Notes: generated by a model not told the origin, from the sequence alone. A stretch of 64,000 bases of DNA from a bacterium (GCA_021463645.1 JAJTYI010000004.1:110277-174276), one strand, 5' to 3'; shown: positions 12,185-33,414, counted from the stretch's first letter. Numbers and translations: made by a program.

Positions 12185-12277
12185 GAATTTGAAATAAAGG
12201 ATGGAAAGCTAAGCTACGAATGGGTTAAACCTTTTGATAGTGTCTTTGTTTCCGCTAAGGGTCACACTTGGGGTGGC
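12185..12277 (+). pseudogene. Remnant of a large-serine-recombinase C-terminus (copy 1)
   Basis: Translates EFEIKDGKLSYEWVKPFDSVFVSAKGHTWGG. This is colinear with LTIKDGKLQYDWIKPFDSIFNSAKSHEWGG at 33247-33339. No upstream recombinase body is present. Confidence 0.5.
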
Positions 12278-12346
12278 CATGCCTTCGCTGAAGCTACGGC
12301 AGACCTTACCCAGTGTATTTCTTCGCAAGCTCAGAAACACTGGGGT
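12270..12346 (+). repeat. Structured repeat unit, copy 1 (GGGGTGG + 65 nt + GGGGT)
   Basis: ggggtggCcatgcctTcgctGaagctacggcagaccttacccagtgtatttcttcgcaagctcagaaacactggggt. It has 3 internal mismatches to the copies at 17815-17892 and 25085-25163. Confidence 0.9.
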
Positions 12347-12396
12347 CAATGGCTGGATGCGTTTTGGAACTCTTTAATTTAGATTTTGAATTGCAA

Positions 12397-12642
12397 CTAT
12401 TCACTAAATTCTAACTTAGTATCATCCGGCATTTTTTCACTTATTGCTAGTCTCAGTTTCTTAAGAGCATCATTTTTGTCTTTTCCCCATACTTCTCTAA
12501 ATGGAAAAGGTAATTCTGAAGGTGAAATTTTACCTTCATGATTTTCTTTTTTCACAAATTCTACAATACCAGCAAAATGAAACTTTCCAGCTATTGCTGG
12601 AATAATCTTTTTAGTACCAATACCAATTATGTATTTTTCCAT
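12397..12642 (-). CDS. Hypothetical small protein
   Basis: 81-aa ORF with no recognisable motif. Confidence 0.35.
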   Translation of the reverse strand: MEKYIIGIGTKKIIPAIAGKFHFAGIVEFVKKENHEGKISPSELPFPFREVWGKDKNDALKKLRLAISEKMPDDTKLEFSE

Positions 12643-12724
12643 TTTTTTAAATTAGATAATTCAGTTTAAACAACCAACTTAAATACTGAATTCATGATTC
12701 CAGATGATGATTCAACAATTAATA

Positions 12725-13282
12725 TTATTCATATATTAGGTCCCATCTGTCAATGTATTCATCATACCACTTAGGTCCGAGTTGTGGACCTCTAGAACCC
12801 TTGTTGTTTAAATTCCTTTTATATAGCTGATCTTCTGAATCTATAAATAATATAGATCTTTTATCCTTTACTAGATTTTCTGGAATTATCCAACATTTTT
12901 CAATAGAAATTTCTTGCTTCTTTAGACCTATAAAAATATAAAAATCACATTTACGTCTTCTTCTTCCACTAACAAATAGATTGGATTTTCTGTCAAACAT
13001 TTGGGAGTGATTGGTGAATTGCCAACCCTTGAATTCATAACCTTTCATTTGCCAATCCTTAGATTGTGGTTTTGAAGTTTTAACTTCTATTAAGGTATTT
13101 GATCTTGTAATTATGTCGCAATCTGCCATAGAATTTGCTAGCTTCATACCAGGAATGCCCCTTCTTGCTAACTCTGCAAGTGCATAGTATTCACCATATA
13201 ACCCAACAGAAGCCCTGTTCTTAAAATCTTCTGTGTAAATTTTTTGGTCCATAATAACTAATAAATTACAAGATTTTATCAT
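12725..13282 (-). CDS. PD-(D/E)XK nuclease-fold protein (Hjc/YraN-like core)
   Basis: 185 aa (alternative start Met11 at 13252). GEYYALAELARRGIPG...ADCDIITRSNTLIEVKTSK fits the G-x3-E...D-x(n)-(D/E)-x-K restriction-endonuclease-like core. Confidence 0.5.
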   Translation of the reverse strand: MIKSCNLLVIMDQKIYTEDFKNRASVGLYGEYYALAELARRGIPGMKLANSMADCDIITRSNTLIEVKTSKPQSKDWQMKGYEFKGWQFTNHSQMFDRKSNLFVSGRRRRKCDFYIFIGLKKQEISIEKCWIIPENLVKDKRSILFIDSEDQLYKRNLNNKGSRGPQLGPKWYDEYIDRWDLIYE

Positions 13283-13410
13283 GGTTGATAATGAATTTAG
13301 AAACCATAACTATATTTCCAATTTTAACATTAGTTACATTTATGTATTATGGGTTTTACTATTTTATAGTCTTCATATTAATCAATGATTAGCTTATACT
13401 TAGGCATAGA

Positions 13411-30518: not shown

Positions 30519-31078
30519 ATACGTTCTTCTTGGTAATTATAGATTGTTGACAACTCACGACGCACTGCTGACGCAGTGTTTAATAATAACCTTAAATTTA
30601 TTATACACTTTTTTAATGAATTTGAGAAAACTATTTGATATGGCTCTAGACCATCAATGGTTTAAATTAAATAGATGGGCAGTTGTTGGACTCGTTCATC
30701 AACCTAGAAATAGATTTTAGATTCAATTTATTCTTCCTCTGTATTTCGGTATAATTCACTTACAAAGTTTAGTGACACCCAAACTCAGTGCTTCGGTATT
30801 GGACATGGTCAAACTATCCTATTATTTAGAAGCTGTTCGCACCGGAAAGCAATATAGAGTTAGTCAGAAACAATTAGATAAATTTTTGAAATCAGTTGAA
30901 AATAATTTAAAACGTCCCCTGTGAAATCCATATTATAAGATACTTTTCTTTTAAGCTAATTAGCTTAGGTTTGTTATTTTCGTTAAAATAGTAGTAAAAA
31001 TACTGTCCCATTCTTTGACGATATTACTGTTAATTAGGTAGATGATATTAATATTATAAATATTTATTAAAAACCGAT

Positions 31079-32380
31079 ATGCCTGAAACTGAGTATAGAA
31101 TTCCAGAAGATTACATCGCTCGCATGGCGGAAGAATTGGCAGGTTCGCAATCACTAAATTTAGTTGAAGGGGATGTACTTTTAATAAATTGTGATGAATG
31201 GGGTATTCCGCTTTATCAGAAATTAGCTAAAATCTGCGCAGATAGGGGAGTTGAATTGAGATTGGCGTACAATGGGACGCAGAATATACCGGAAGAATTG
31301 TTAAATCTTCAAAACAGAATCGCTGAGGGAGCTTTTGATGAGGGCTCCTCAGAACTAGCTGCGGAAGTAGAAAATATAGCAGGTGTTCATCTAAATGATG
31401 GAGCTAACAAGGTAATTGCATTAAGAGGGTTCCCTCCTCTCGATCTAAAAGACAGCGAGATAAGCGAGAGCTTGGGTGAGTTGTATGAAAACGCATCAAA
31501 GAAGAATCGAGAACTAAGAGGGCCAAAAGATTGGATAGTTATCTTGATACCTACCCCGGAAGAGGCAAGAATAATAGGGTTAAGTTATGAAGAATATCTG
31601 GAGATGTTCTTTAAGGCAATTGATCGAGACTATGAAACGGTTTACACAGAACAAAGTCGCGCGATAGAGAAATTGAGAAAAGGGAAAAAGTTAGAAATTA
31701 CACAACACAATCCTGACGCTCCCGAAGGTTGGCAGGATACTTATCTGGAAATAGACATAGAAGACCATTTCCGGGACGGGATAGTTAACTGGGCGAATTC
31801 AACCATAAGAAGAAATATGCCAGGAAGCGAAATTTTTACCGCTCCAAATAATGTAAACGGTGTATTTACAGTATTTGGTCCGATCTCCTTTGCTAGAGAA
31901 GTGCTAAAAGGTATGAAATGGGTAATAAAAGATAATGAAATCGACTTAGACCAATTAGAGATACTTATAGAGGGAGGAGACCAAGACTCTGCGGAATACG
32001 CAAGAATCTTAAAGGAAGTAAAGGCTGAACTTACTAAAGATGAAGGTGCGCGATTTATCGGAGAACTAGGAATCGGAACAAATCCTGTTATACAGGGCTC
32101 TCAAATTAATGCAGTTCTAGCCGAGAAGAAATTAGGATTTCATTTGGCAGCAGGGGATTCGTATGAAATTTATAACGAAAAACCCTATGCCGATGGTGTA
32201 TGGGTACATGTTGATAACGGTATTCGAAGTGCCCATCATTACGATCTACCATCTGCAAATTATGAAGGACTAACCATAAAGCTTGATGGAGAACAATTTA
32301 TGGTAAATGGAGTATTTGTTAACCCAGACGGTACTCCTGATCCTCAGTTAGCGTATATTTCTGCATCTACCGCAATTTGA
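31079..32380 (+). CDS. Aminopeptidase, M29 (AmpS/PepS) family
   Basis: 433 aa. NMPGSEIFTAP and FIGELGIGTNP match the M29 thermophilic metalloprotease motifs. Confidence 0.6.
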   Translation: MPETEYRIPEDYIARMAEELAGSQSLNLVEGDVLLINCDEWGIPLYQKLAKICADRGVELRLAYNGTQNIPEELLNLQNRIAEGAFDEGSSELAAEVENIAGVHLNDGANKVIALRGFPPLDLKDSEISESLGELYENASKKNRELRGPKDWIVILIPTPEEARIIGLSYEEYLEMFFKAIDRDYETVYTEQSRAIEKLRKGKKLEITQHNPDAPEGWQDTYLEIDIEDHFRDGIVNWANSTIRRNMPGSEIFTAPNNVNGVFTVFGPISFAREVLKGMKWVIKDNEIDLDQLEILIEGGDQDSAEYARILKEVKAELTKDEGARFIGELGIGTNPVIQGSQINAVLAEKKLGFHLAAGDSYEIYNEKPYADGVWVHVDNGIRSAHHYDLPSANYEGLTIKLDGEQFMVNGVFVNPDGTPDPQLAYISASTAI

Positions 32381-32712
32381 ATGAGCTTTTTCAATTCGGC
32401 TTCATCAATCTTATCTCCTTCTTTTAAGTCGATACCACGATGATTCTTAGAATCAAATCCAGAATTAAGTAACTTACTTTTATCTTTATCTGCGAATTTC
32501 GCCCCGTTCAGAAAGTTTAACTTTACATGAGTTTTAAATCCACATGCCGCTGCGATCATCTTGTTCCCACTCCAGACTGGGGTATTCCATTTCCATTCTT
32601 CTTTTAAATCCGGTTTAACTTCCAGTAGAAGTTTTCTAAACATGGAGATCAAATCCGCCTGCCATTTCGGCAGTTCAGAAATGTATTTGTCGATTTGTTC
32701 TGGATTGGTCAT
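32344..32712 (-). CDS. DUF1801 (YdhG-like) protein
   Basis: Likely start is Met9 of the track ORF. ISELPKWQADLISMFRKLLLEVKPDLKEEWKWNTPVWSGNKMIAAACGFKTHVKLNF is the DUF1801 pattern. Confidence 0.6.
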   Translation of the reverse strand: MTNPEQIDKYISELPKWQADLISMFRKLLLEVKPDLKEEWKWNTPVWSGNKMIAAACGFKTHVKLNFLNGAKFADKDKSKLLNSGFDSKNHRGIDLKEGDKIDEAELKKLIQIAVDAEIYAN

Positions 32713-33060
32713 ATATATACCTACTAAGATTACCAATATGATAATTTTACATGTTTTATATTTCTAACACGATTATATAGATCTGTTATATAATAAAGGA
32801 TGCTTTTGTTATATAACAAAAAATAGTACTATAGATATTTTTTATAATAGAAATATGGAGGGTGATACTTGTCCTCAAAGAGGTGACATTGTTTACTGCG
32901 AGCCAAAGGATGGTGGGATGGAGATCTCTTTTCCATGGGGGTTATCGGCGTATAGGCTGAATGAGAATGGGTACTTGATTCCTGTTGTAATAGGCCCTGG
33001 GGCGGGCATACTTACTGGGGGCGGTCAACTTTTTTTTGGAGGAGAATTACTACAAATGTA

Positions 33061-33339
33061 TATGAAGAATTACGAGCCAAATGGAACAAACAGAAAAAGA
33101 AACACGAGGATAAACTTGAAAGGATTAGCCAAGCAGACGAAGAGTATTATATTACCTCTGCAATGCTACTTGAGCTTGCGTCGAGAAGTTACGAACTATT
33201 TATGGGTTCTGAACCTGAACAAAAAAGGCGACTTATTACCCTTACACTTCAAAACCTAACCATAAAAGATGGAAAACTGCAGTATGACTGGATAAAACCT
33301 TTCGATTCTATCTTCAATTCTGCTAAGAGTCACGAATGG
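33061..33339 (+). pseudogene. Remnant of a large-serine-recombinase C-terminus (copy 2), reading straight into tRNA-His
   Basis: Translates YEELRAKWNKQKKKHEDKLERISQADEEYYITSAMLLELASRSYELFMGSEPEQKRRLITLTLQNLTIKDGKLQYDWIKPFDSIFNSAKSHEWGG. There is no catalytic N-domain or Zn ribbon upstream. The coiled-coil tail resembles tails of large serine recombinases. Confidence 0.5.
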
Positions 33340-33414
33340 GGTGGCAAATGGGACTCGAACCCACGACCTCCTCTTCCACAGAGAGGCGCTCTAACCAACT
33401 GAGCTATTGCCACC
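33337..33414 (-). tRNA. tRNA-His (anticodon GTG), CCA encoded
   Basis: The reverse complement reads G(-1)-GTGGCAA-TA-GCTC-AGTTGGTTA-GAGC-G-CCTCT-CTGTGGA-AGAGG-AGGTC-GTGGG-TTCGAGT-CCCAT-TTGCCAC-C-CCA. It has a perfect 7-bp acceptor stem, an extra 5' G opposite C73 (His identity element) and anticodon GTG. Confidence 0.9.

Follow-up and report, generated by a model that had tools for sequence, protein, structure and literature searches.

About 21 kb of a 64,000-nt stretch of bacterial DNA (GCA_021463645.1, JAJTYI010000004.1:110277-174276; hereafter the window) from a candidate phyla radiation (CPR) bacterium, Candidatus Dojkabacteria, very probably consist of three islands, A, B and C, arranged in tandem at the 3' end of a tRNA-His gene. 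We consider it likely that this tRNA 3' end serves as the chromosomal attachment site of large serine recombinases (LSRs) in this lineage and that three elements were inserted there in series.

Core repeats, junctions and islands

Two minus-strand tRNA-His(gtg) genes were called by ARAGORN (33337-33413 and 25156-25232), with Rfam bit scores of 70.3 and 56.7, respectively. Between the copies, 3 of 79 positions are different, and all three belong to the 5' acceptor strand, in agreement with an initial annotation that had described two tRNA-His with three substitutions there. As a result of these differences, two positions in the acceptor stem of the second tRNA-His are mismatched and another forms a G-U pair. 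The tRNA-His 3' end, ACCCCA, is the complement of a core, TGGGGT, shared by the junctions. The longer octamer TGGGGTGG occurs exactly at 12269, 25084, 25156 and 33337 and a fifth time at 14567 (5 in the window versus 0.58 expected; 0 of 100 shuffles reach 5). The fifth copy (14567-14574) lies within an open reading frame (ORF; 14285-15223), has no repeat context and is probably a chance occurrence. Variant cores are found at 17814 (TAGGGTGG), 17886 (TGGGGTGA) and 12341 (TGGGGTca). One-mismatch octamers are common in the window (31 found versus 18.5 expected), and the variants therefore count only by virtue of their in-register position inside a longer repeat.

That repeat is direct, 154 nt long and present in three copies (12201-12354, 17746-17899 and 25016-25169), of which two show 64 and 95% identity to the middle one. 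Every block contains a core, an identical 64-nt module (M) and a second core, and the core pairs 12269/12341, 17814/17886 and 25084/25156 each bracket one copy of M. All seven core copies listed in the initial annotation were found at their positions. It had also listed the 72-nt spacing of the cores and overlooked their pairing around M; the junction architecture it proposed stands with regard to recombinase 3' ends, with three junctions now read as core, 64 nt and core. The features of the array are as follows.

12185-12268, plus strand: C-terminal remnant of a lineage-1 LSR (..IKDGKLSYEWVKPFDSVFVSAKGHTWGG) reading into the first core (similarity to the 33.1-kb remnant)
12269-12346, plus strand: junction J1, with core TGGGGTGG (12269-12276), M copy 1 (12277-12340) and core TGGGGT (12341-12346) (repeat alignment)
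12277-12340, 17822-17885 and 25092-25155, plus strand: module M, 64 nt (tcatgcctacgctaaagctacggcagaccttacccagtgtatttcttcgcaagctcagaaacac), three copies in the window
12347-17813, plus strand: island A, 5.5 kb, without a recombinase (Pfam, PADLOC, match to contig L024)
About 35 nt from 12347, plus strand: X1, left arm of island A, also present beside island B in contig L025
17752-17781 and 17782-17813: right end of island A, the last 30 nt of a lineage-2 recombinase and a 32-nt spacer
17814-17892, plus strand: junction J2, with core variant TAGGGTGG (17814-17821), M copy 2 (17822-17885) and core TGGGGTG (17886-17892)
17893-25083, plus strand: island B, 7.2 kb, with an intact 548-aa LSR (match to contigs L025/L036; Pfam, PADLOC)
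From 17893, plus strand: X2, left arm of island B (gatagatgtaacaccttctgaac)
23405-25051, plus strand: intact lineage-2 LSR, 548 aa (Pfam domains)
25084-25163, plus strand: junction J3, with core (25084-25091), M copy 3 (25092-25155) and core (25156-25163)
25156-25232, minus strand: second tRNA-His, left end of island C (ARAGORN, Rfam)
25233-33336, plus the tRNA at 25156-25232: island C, 8.1 kb, containing the remnant of an LSR and a tRNA-His copy of its own (Pfam, match to contig L008)
33052-33336, plus strand: lineage-1 recombinase remnant of island C, its frame entering the tRNA
33337-33413, minus strand: intact tRNA-His, putative right half of the attachment site (ARAGORN, Rfam)

The cores form the island boundaries, and the last core of J3 doubles as the 3' end of the second tRNA-His. 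A second, independent contig of this strain, L023, reproduces the left part of J1. Islands A and C have no intact recombinase, which is the property of cis-mobilisable elements (CIMEs), the term used in the streptococcal literature for recombinase-less elements with retained ends. Islands of the Islander type lie between a whole tRNA gene and a displaced fragment copied from its 3' part, and they carry a tyrosine integrase. Here, a 6-8-nt copy is present at every junction and a 77-nt copy accompanies island C, and the only recombinases found are of the serine type. An integron cassette array was considered and rejected, with no tyrosine recombinase found and M bounded by direct, not inverted, core repeats.

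Islands in other contigs

The comparison contigs (L numbers) include several of this species that exact-protein look-ups retrieved from other samples. Island B is present in L025 and L036 with 99.5% identity over 7,160 nt (window 17886-25044), the match starting exactly at core 17886. In L036, island B adjoins the tRNA-His of this locus with no island in between: its 559-aa recombinase (..GNVLDGV) reads into a complete tRNA-His, beyond which the flank shows 97.5% identity to window 33697-33973. L025 and L036 are 99.96% identical over 10,974 nt and split directly after the TGGGGT core, where L036 proceeds into tRNA-His and L025 into another element whose first ~35 nt correspond to the X1 arm. 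This observed insertion polymorphism of near-identical contigs is the nearest available comparison of an occupied with an empty site and places the event at the core. The comparison with related genomes proposed in the initial annotation shows island B as a discrete unit that is polymorphic at the core between L036 and L025.

The other islands are also found separately. L024 matches the end of island A (16463-17886) with 95.5% identity, and similarity stops exactly where the second core begins; its order is island A end, recombinase tail, 32 nt, core and M. L008 matches window 25207-36000, including island C, with 99.4% identity. Intact but differing LSRs occupy the same tRNA-His in L001 (504 aa), L009 (558 aa, with Fic and other cargo) and L033, which resembles L009, and all three run ...WGGKWDSNPRPPLPQRGALTN (stop) into the tRNA. 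Together with L025/L036, these contigs support the initial proposal that elements were inserted repeatedly at this tRNA 3' end and later decayed. Different LSR islands at this tRNA occur in other species as well as in other strains. L026/L027 and L034 each have a lineage-2 LSR that reads into tRNA-His, with restriction-modification cargos that differ between them, and L035 (1-9520) carries two LSR genes in series ahead of a tRNA-His near tRNA-Lys. The flank or sequence of tRNA-His differs in L026, L034 and L035, and the arrangement is the same, with tandem junctions in L026 and L035. Further lineage-1 tails are an LSR tail to the left in L026 and a tail remnant in L034. In L026 (1-11720) and L034 (1-11690), tRNA-His lies beside def. 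A metagenome scan with the 3' half of the tRNA returned mostly unrelated bacteria with ordinary terminators, L033 being the sole relevant match. Short-read contigs often break at these repeats, as expected of a strain-variable, repeat-bounded locus.

Serine recombinases and their remnants

The intact recombinase displays the domain set of an LSR: an N-terminal resolvase catalytic domain (Resolvase PF00239, 4.6e-18), a recombinase domain (Recombinase PF07508, 8.5e-07) and a zinc ribbon (Zn_ribbon_recom PF13408, 1.3e-04). A catalytic-type RKST motif is present in its translation, and exchange between attP and attB at a 2-bp crossover is its predicted activity. The public gene call starts 8 codons downstream, yielding 540 aa; exact look-up of the 548-aa protein gave no match, and the public versions with the later start were reached via cluster members. 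The protein is 99% identical to P0001, and an identical variant, P0122 (..NYLKVDMFF), is encoded on a 247.6-kb NCBI contig.

The initial annotation's four recombinase 3' ends were all confirmed, by the domains of the intact LSR and by similarity for the rest. Positions 17752-17781 match the last 30 nt of the intact gene. The remnant at 33052-33336, whose reading frame continues through tRNA-His, is 28% identical to the C-terminal 100 aa of another strain's intact LSR (E 2e-13). The remnant at 12185-12277 is 75% identical to the 33.1-kb remnant over 28 aa (E 7e-16); three further contigs (L013-L015) retain it beside the left flank, and it is the fixed left scar of the array. The remnants at 12.2 and 33.1 kb show no detectable similarity to the intact LSR (E 19), indicating that at least two LSR lineages have used the tRNA-His site. 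The initial suggestion that related elements integrated repeatedly is therefore sustained for repetition but not for the relatedness of all elements. Lineage-1 C-termini conform to ..KPFDS.F.SAK.H.WGG, in which the core encodes WGG, and lineage-2 C-termini to ..NP.FE.Y.KV, followed by five codons and a core-encoded GV.

Reading into tRNA was verified in DNA for L001, L009, L026/L027, L033, L034, L035, L036 and the window remnant. Most of the best 120 homologues of the intact LSR (P0001-P0120) come from CPR genomes. In 47 of the 120, the C-terminus is a peptide read from the reverse strand of a tRNA T-arm (GIEPP, RTRTCD, DSNLRP and similar; 1.7% in control interior windows), and a further 38 end just short of such a peptide (control 0.3%). 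The C-termini of about 70% of these homologues correspond to various tRNA genes, not to tRNA-His alone. Collectively, this LSR clade appears to have tRNA 3' ends as its usual target. Pfam detected no tyrosine recombinase domain or Phage_integrase match in 12-34 kb. Scans of viral contigs with module M, the X2 arm and recombinase relatives were all empty and gave no sign that the elements are phages.

Junction anatomy and module M

Alignment on TGGGGT of 18 junctions, from the window and nine other contigs, revealed an exact core in 15. The others have TAGGGT (J2a), TGGGGG (L013b) or, in L024, a break at the end of M without a core. Eight kinds of left arm meet the core (two lineage-1 tails, the canonical lineage-2 tail, its 32-nt variant, the right end of M, a z-arm ending in ttctaga, the L001 tail and the L009 tail), as do six kinds of right arm (the left end of M, a variant of it, X1, X2, tRNA and none). 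The right end of M is joined to X1, X2, tRNA or unrelated DNA; X1 is joined to M or a lineage-2 recombinase tail, and X2 to M or a third arm. In every array examined, a serine recombinase gene or tail lies at a fixed distance from the core. Such free reassortment of arms at TGGGGT is best read as the product of site-specific exchange, not of duplication or homologous recombination.

Spacing within the arms provides a further indication. The right arms of lineage-2 elements (X2, L026, L034 and L035) have GAAC at +20 to +23 after TGGGGT, X1 has it at +21 to +24, and the tRNA arms of four tRNA-His variants (window, L036, L026/L034 and L035) at +15 to +18. In L026 and L034, the element arms mimic the tRNA with a 5-nt insert (ggaagaagggacAGCATctgaac and ggaagaggggacAGAGTttgaac), the tRNAs themselves reading ggaagaggggacttgaac and ggaagaggggatttgaac at this position. 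Compared with attB, attP has its zinc-ribbon motif 5 bp more distant from the centre in serine integrase sites (Rutherford et al., PMC3783163), and the GAAC offset corresponds to this outward shift. The X2 and L035 arms are homologous, though their recombinases share just 44% identity; the arms represent two independent families, and the spacing is to be taken as support, not as proof. A dyad symmetry seen by eye did not rise above chance when reverse complements of left arms were compared with right arms (recombinase tail versus X2, 11/26, z -0.1) and was not used.

With its flanking cores, M is identical between J2 and J3 over ~75 nt. J2, J3 and L024 also share, at 95-98% identity, the larger block that runs from the recombinase tail through 32 nt and the core to M. 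A search of 185,579 species representatives found M in one genome, the Candidatus Dojkabacteria metagenome-assembled genome L024, as a single copy. All M sites are island junctions (three of them in the window; L013-15 and L024 have one each), and both ends of M are breakpoints with several partners. In L013-15, a left arm homologous to M starts a different 140-nt mini-unit. The minus strand of core-M-core is predicted to fold into two hairpins (-30.7 kcal/mol, z -3.56). An Rfam search of 24950-25300 with E up to 10 matched the tRNA alone and nothing for M, and M as a decayed tRNA-His copy was rejected, the alignment being no better than shuffles (z 0 to 0.5). M would represent a unit without cargo in which a right arm and a left arm are enclosed by two cores. 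Most likely, it is an element reduced to its arms that was copied along with adjacent islands upon recombination between outer cores. One possibility is a putative role in restoring a usable target for the next element.

Proposed serial insertion and alternative explanations

In the proposed mechanism, an element would be laid out as left arm, cargo and a recombinase gene pointing to the core, and strand exchange would occur within TGGGGT. The recombinase-side arm of the element would supply the terminal bases of the tRNA, which would thereby stay intact upon integration. With the last bases of the tRNA on the element side, every recombinase-side arm would have to end by rebuilding ACCCCA, and this need would account for the retention of 6-8 nt of identity although LSRs require only two bases. 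Island B would be a complete element, A and C would have lost their recombinase and kept their ends, and the older recombinase tail at 12.2 kb would mark the left edge of an array in which at least two unrelated LSR lineages used the same site. Excised circles are predicted to have the junction ...ttaattgatgaaaTGGGGTGatagatgtaac, or ...ggtaatgttctagaTGGGGTGatagatgtaac for island B, and healed sites are predicted to read ...cagaaacacTGGGGTGGtcatgcc (M beside M) or z-arm TGGGGTGG followed by tRNA. For the excision of single and composite units expected of CIME arrays, the L036/L025 polymorphism offers indirect support. The anatomy of the junctions, the reassorted arms, the insertion polymorphism and the domains of the recombinase are shown directly; the enzyme acting at each junction, the exact crossover dinucleotide and the order of arrival are inferred, as is the role of M.

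Several points weigh against this mechanism. Sites of the attL or attR type are not normally used by LSRs for integration, and homotypic stacking therefore needs extra explanation. The imperfect dyad symmetry expected of LSR sites did not exceed shuffles in the AT-rich arms. Excised circles, attP junctions and sites truly free of any island were all absent from the contigs compared, raw reads not having been searched for circles. The islands of the window are separated by core-M-core, whereas recombinase tail, core and arm adjoin directly in L025, L026, L034 and L035, and integration alone leaves the origin of M unexplained. The identity block of island C comprises 71 nt of tRNA, exceeding what LSR exchange needs; together with the different tRNA body in L008, this indicates that homologous exchange acted too. 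Finally, the A-B-C order is known from one assembly, probably the 247.6-kb NCBI contig with the identical recombinase variant, as short-read contigs of the apparent source strain (L023, L028 and L012) break at each repeat.

The last point raises the prospect of an array that is partly an assembly artefact, with strain variants of one or two islands joined at the 72-154-nt repeats and A-B-C never on one chromosome. M and its cores, identical between J2 and J3 over ~75 nt, would permit such joining, and contigs of apparently the same strain do stop in repeats (L023 in the M of J1, L028 at 17794, L012 at the tRNA). Moreover, A occurs without B in L024, and B without A or C in L025 and L036. We nonetheless judge an artefact to be decidedly unlikely. 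The three copies of the repeat are distinguishable (64 and 95% identity) and bordered by unique sequence, independent contigs (L023, L028 and L024) confirm the left halves of J1 and J2, and the recombinase variant of the window (..NYLKVDMFF) recurs on the 247.6-kb NCBI contig. Even were the order wrong, each junction type is real in some contig. It is also unlikely, if slightly less so, that the array was built elsewhere and arrived as one or two composite blocks, with the internal cores and M copies as inherited scars. The 95-98% identity of the tail-32 nt-core-M block in J2, J3 and L024 looks as if it had been copied as a unit, and composite tandem transfer is documented for other integrative elements (PMC5704250). 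Against this stand the separate occurrence of A, B and C (L024; L025/L036; L008) and the gain or loss of single elements at the core between the near-identical L036 and L025. Composite arrival differs from serial insertion solely in the place of accretion.

Two further alternatives concern M and the enzymes. M could be a small structured RNA gene or a REP/MITE-like (repetitive extragenic palindrome or miniature inverted-repeat transposable element) repeat with a chance tRNA-like end, rather than a relic of an attachment site. The stable fold of the minus strand (two hairpins, z -3.56) agrees with an RNA, and the sole stem difference between M copies keeps, by inspection, a G-U pair in it. Yet the lack of an Rfam family even at E 10, the confinement of M to island junctions and to a single copy in the one matching genome, the recombination breakpoints with several partners at both of its ends, and its dissimilarity to a decayed tRNA (z 0 to 0.5) make this very unlikely. 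That a tyrosine recombinase or homologous recombination exchanged the cores, the serine recombinases being bystanders, is highly improbable. A weak Phage_integrase match does lie beside the L009 LSR, and some homologous exchange is indicated by the 71-nt identity of the tRNA copies and by the second copy's chimeric acceptor stem. However, 12-34 kb contains no tyrosine recombinase domain, a 6-8-nt core is too short for homologous recombination, serine recombinase genes or tails keep their fixed distance from the core in every array examined, and the +5-bp arm rule is specific to LSRs.

Going beyond serial insertion as such, we offer tentatively, and with more doubt than conviction, a CPR/Patescibacteria LSR clade specialised for tRNA 3' ends, in which frames would cross into the tRNA and element arms would mimic the tRNA end with a 5-bp spacer. 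Its members would assemble cassette-like arrays, where M arm pairs acting as portable landing pads would enable stacking otherwise barred by LSR directionality.

Relation to known systems

That elements accumulate in tandem at a tRNA gene and then decay is well known for tyrosine integrases. Distinctive here, in a CPR genome, are serine integrases of two lineages, frames crossing into the tRNA, arms that mimic the tRNA with a 5-bp spacer, and a unit of 64 nt without cargo. The usual targets of phage-type large serine integrases are protein-coding genes, not tRNA 3' ends, and to our knowledge the LSR family is not generally known to target tRNA genes. In the staphylococcal cassette chromosome (SCC) elements of Staphylococcus, including SCCmec, the serine recombinases CcrAB/CcrC insert cargo cassettes at the 3' end of rlmH, and SCC arrays have short direct repeats at their bounds and frequent recombinase-less pseudo-elements. 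By description, the array resembles SCCmec in its serine recombinases, its cargo at the 3' end of a conserved translation-related gene and its recombinase-less elements, but the SCC target is a protein gene and Ccr proteins represent a different LSR branch.

As in tandem accretion with CIMEs and in Islander/TIGER arrays (PMC5704250, PMC7192596), successive elements occupy one regenerated tRNA 3' end, older elements lose the integrase and keep their ends, a core is kept at each junction and content is strain-variable. Those arrays almost all involve tyrosine integrases able to reuse attL/attR cores, whereas LSRs are found here. With the serine integrases of A118/LI, Bxb1 and phiC31 (PMC3783163), the recombinases share a domain set, a gene adjoining the site, a short common core and the 5-bp shift of a distal motif. 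Unlike them, the frame crosses the crossover into tRNA, elements are stacked in tandem, the islands have no phage genes, and no directionality factor was identified. Prochlorococcus tycheposons (bioRxiv 10.1101/2020.12.28.424599) are likewise found in a streamlined genome, with cargo of defence or niche function stacked at tRNA genes and partial tRNA copies. Tyrosine recombinases are used by 910 of 937 tycheposons and LSRs by the remainder (bioRxiv 10.1101/2020.12.28.424599), and many carry replication genes, none of which were seen in the window islands. Our literature search found no paper on such LSR-tRNA elements in CPR bacteria, although large LSR surveys beyond the library searched may have noted them.

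CPR genomes are ~1 Mb in size and their gene exchange is poorly described. Here, ~21 kb of strain-variable cargo are borne by one tRNA gene and turn over between near-identical strains; the cargo spans toxin-antitoxin-like, nuclease and peptidase genes, with restriction-modification systems in related contigs. Serine integrases are the preferred family in genome engineering, and natural ones directed at tRNA ends, with arms readable from metagenomes, could yield new integrase/site pairs, the tRNA end being universally conserved. A mechanistic question is also raised, namely how serine integrases stack elements where integration should destroy the site.

Cargo of the islands

13411-14145: island A, NERD nuclease-domain protein (Pfam; weak PADLOC hits)
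18110-18406: island B, HigB-like toxin (Pfam/PADLOC)
18384-19502: island B, helix-turn-helix (HTH) plus M78 peptidase (PADLOC PD-Lambda-2_B, 6e-37)
19879-21186: island B, protein without family
21169-21387, minus strand: island B, HTH
21480-22025: island B, DUF4352 (Pfam)
22087-23268: island B, SNase protein (PADLOC candidate C3a212, 4e-44)
25423-26298: island C, RimK-type ATP-grasp (Pfam)
Minus strand: island C, two proteins without family, 332 aa and 942 aa
31079-32380: island C, M29 peptidase (Pfam)
32344-32736, minus strand: island C, DUF1801 (Pfam)

Beyond the NERD protein, the cargo of island A comprises five proteins without family. PADLOC, applied to the protein set of islands A-C and to two proteins from the left flank, gave matches in islands A and B and none in island C; in island B, PADLOC and Pfam established no complete known defence system. 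The HigB-like toxin gene overlaps the gene for HTH plus M78 peptidase. The initial annotation had assigned all defence-like genes of the window to the ~21 kb of accessory DNA; in the left flank, a glycosyltransferase matches a Pfam 'conflict system' family.

Second tRNA-His and surroundings of the locus

A promoter-like site, TTGTGA-17-TATAAT with a TG extension (25275-25247), lies 14 nt upstream of the second tRNA-His. The initial annotation placed this tRNA between islands B and C, and its position is correct; having its own promoter-like site, it belongs to island C. Its body is the same as that of the chromosomal tRNA, and its 5' acceptor strand fails to pair with the 3' strand. The L008 copy of island C (L008:18400-18459) has a tRNA-His with a different anticodon stem, and the contig ends within that tRNA. 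These sequences suggest gene conversion between the two tRNA-His copies.

To the right of tRNA-His lies an ATP synthase operon. To the left of the array is a block kept in many samples that reaches the lineage-1 tail at 12.2 kb; look-ups with the left flank recovered contigs that fix this edge and did not lead to the long contig L001. Two further features adjoin tRNA-His.

33391-33654, minus strand: GIY-YIG gene, 87 aa (Pfam GIY-YIG, 1.4e-18)
33730-33670, minus strand: 5' fragment of an older tRNA-His (~first 30 nt) behind its promoter

Within 33387-33730, the order is older tRNA fragment, GIY-YIG gene and complete tRNA-His, and the D-loop of the older fragment holds a 20-nt palindrome (CCTGCCTGCCGGCAGGCAGG). 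In L036 (10969-11130), an uninterrupted tRNA-His lies behind the same promoter. The tRNA-His adjoining the islands is, to judge by this arrangement, a rebuilt copy downstream of a GIY-YIG insertion, which looks like a GIY-YIG cassette that invaded tRNA-His and brought a replacement 5' part.

A promoter-like segment is repeated at 33727-33785 and 33916-33974. Upstream of tRNA-His, a hairpin, GTCCCGTA...TACGGGAC (window 33860-33905), has no Rfam match at gathering score and could be a small RNA or repeat element; it is also found in the 140-nt mini-unit of L013 (18150-18200) and twice in L036 (11190-11230 and 11380-11420). On the left side, a 207-aa UPF0020-type methyltransferase gene that is whole in L013-L015 appears as two short ORFs in the window (10905-11527). 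A 1014-aa protein with phosphoribosyltransferase and PRA-isomerase domains (7595-10639, minus strand) is kept in the left flank of many samples.

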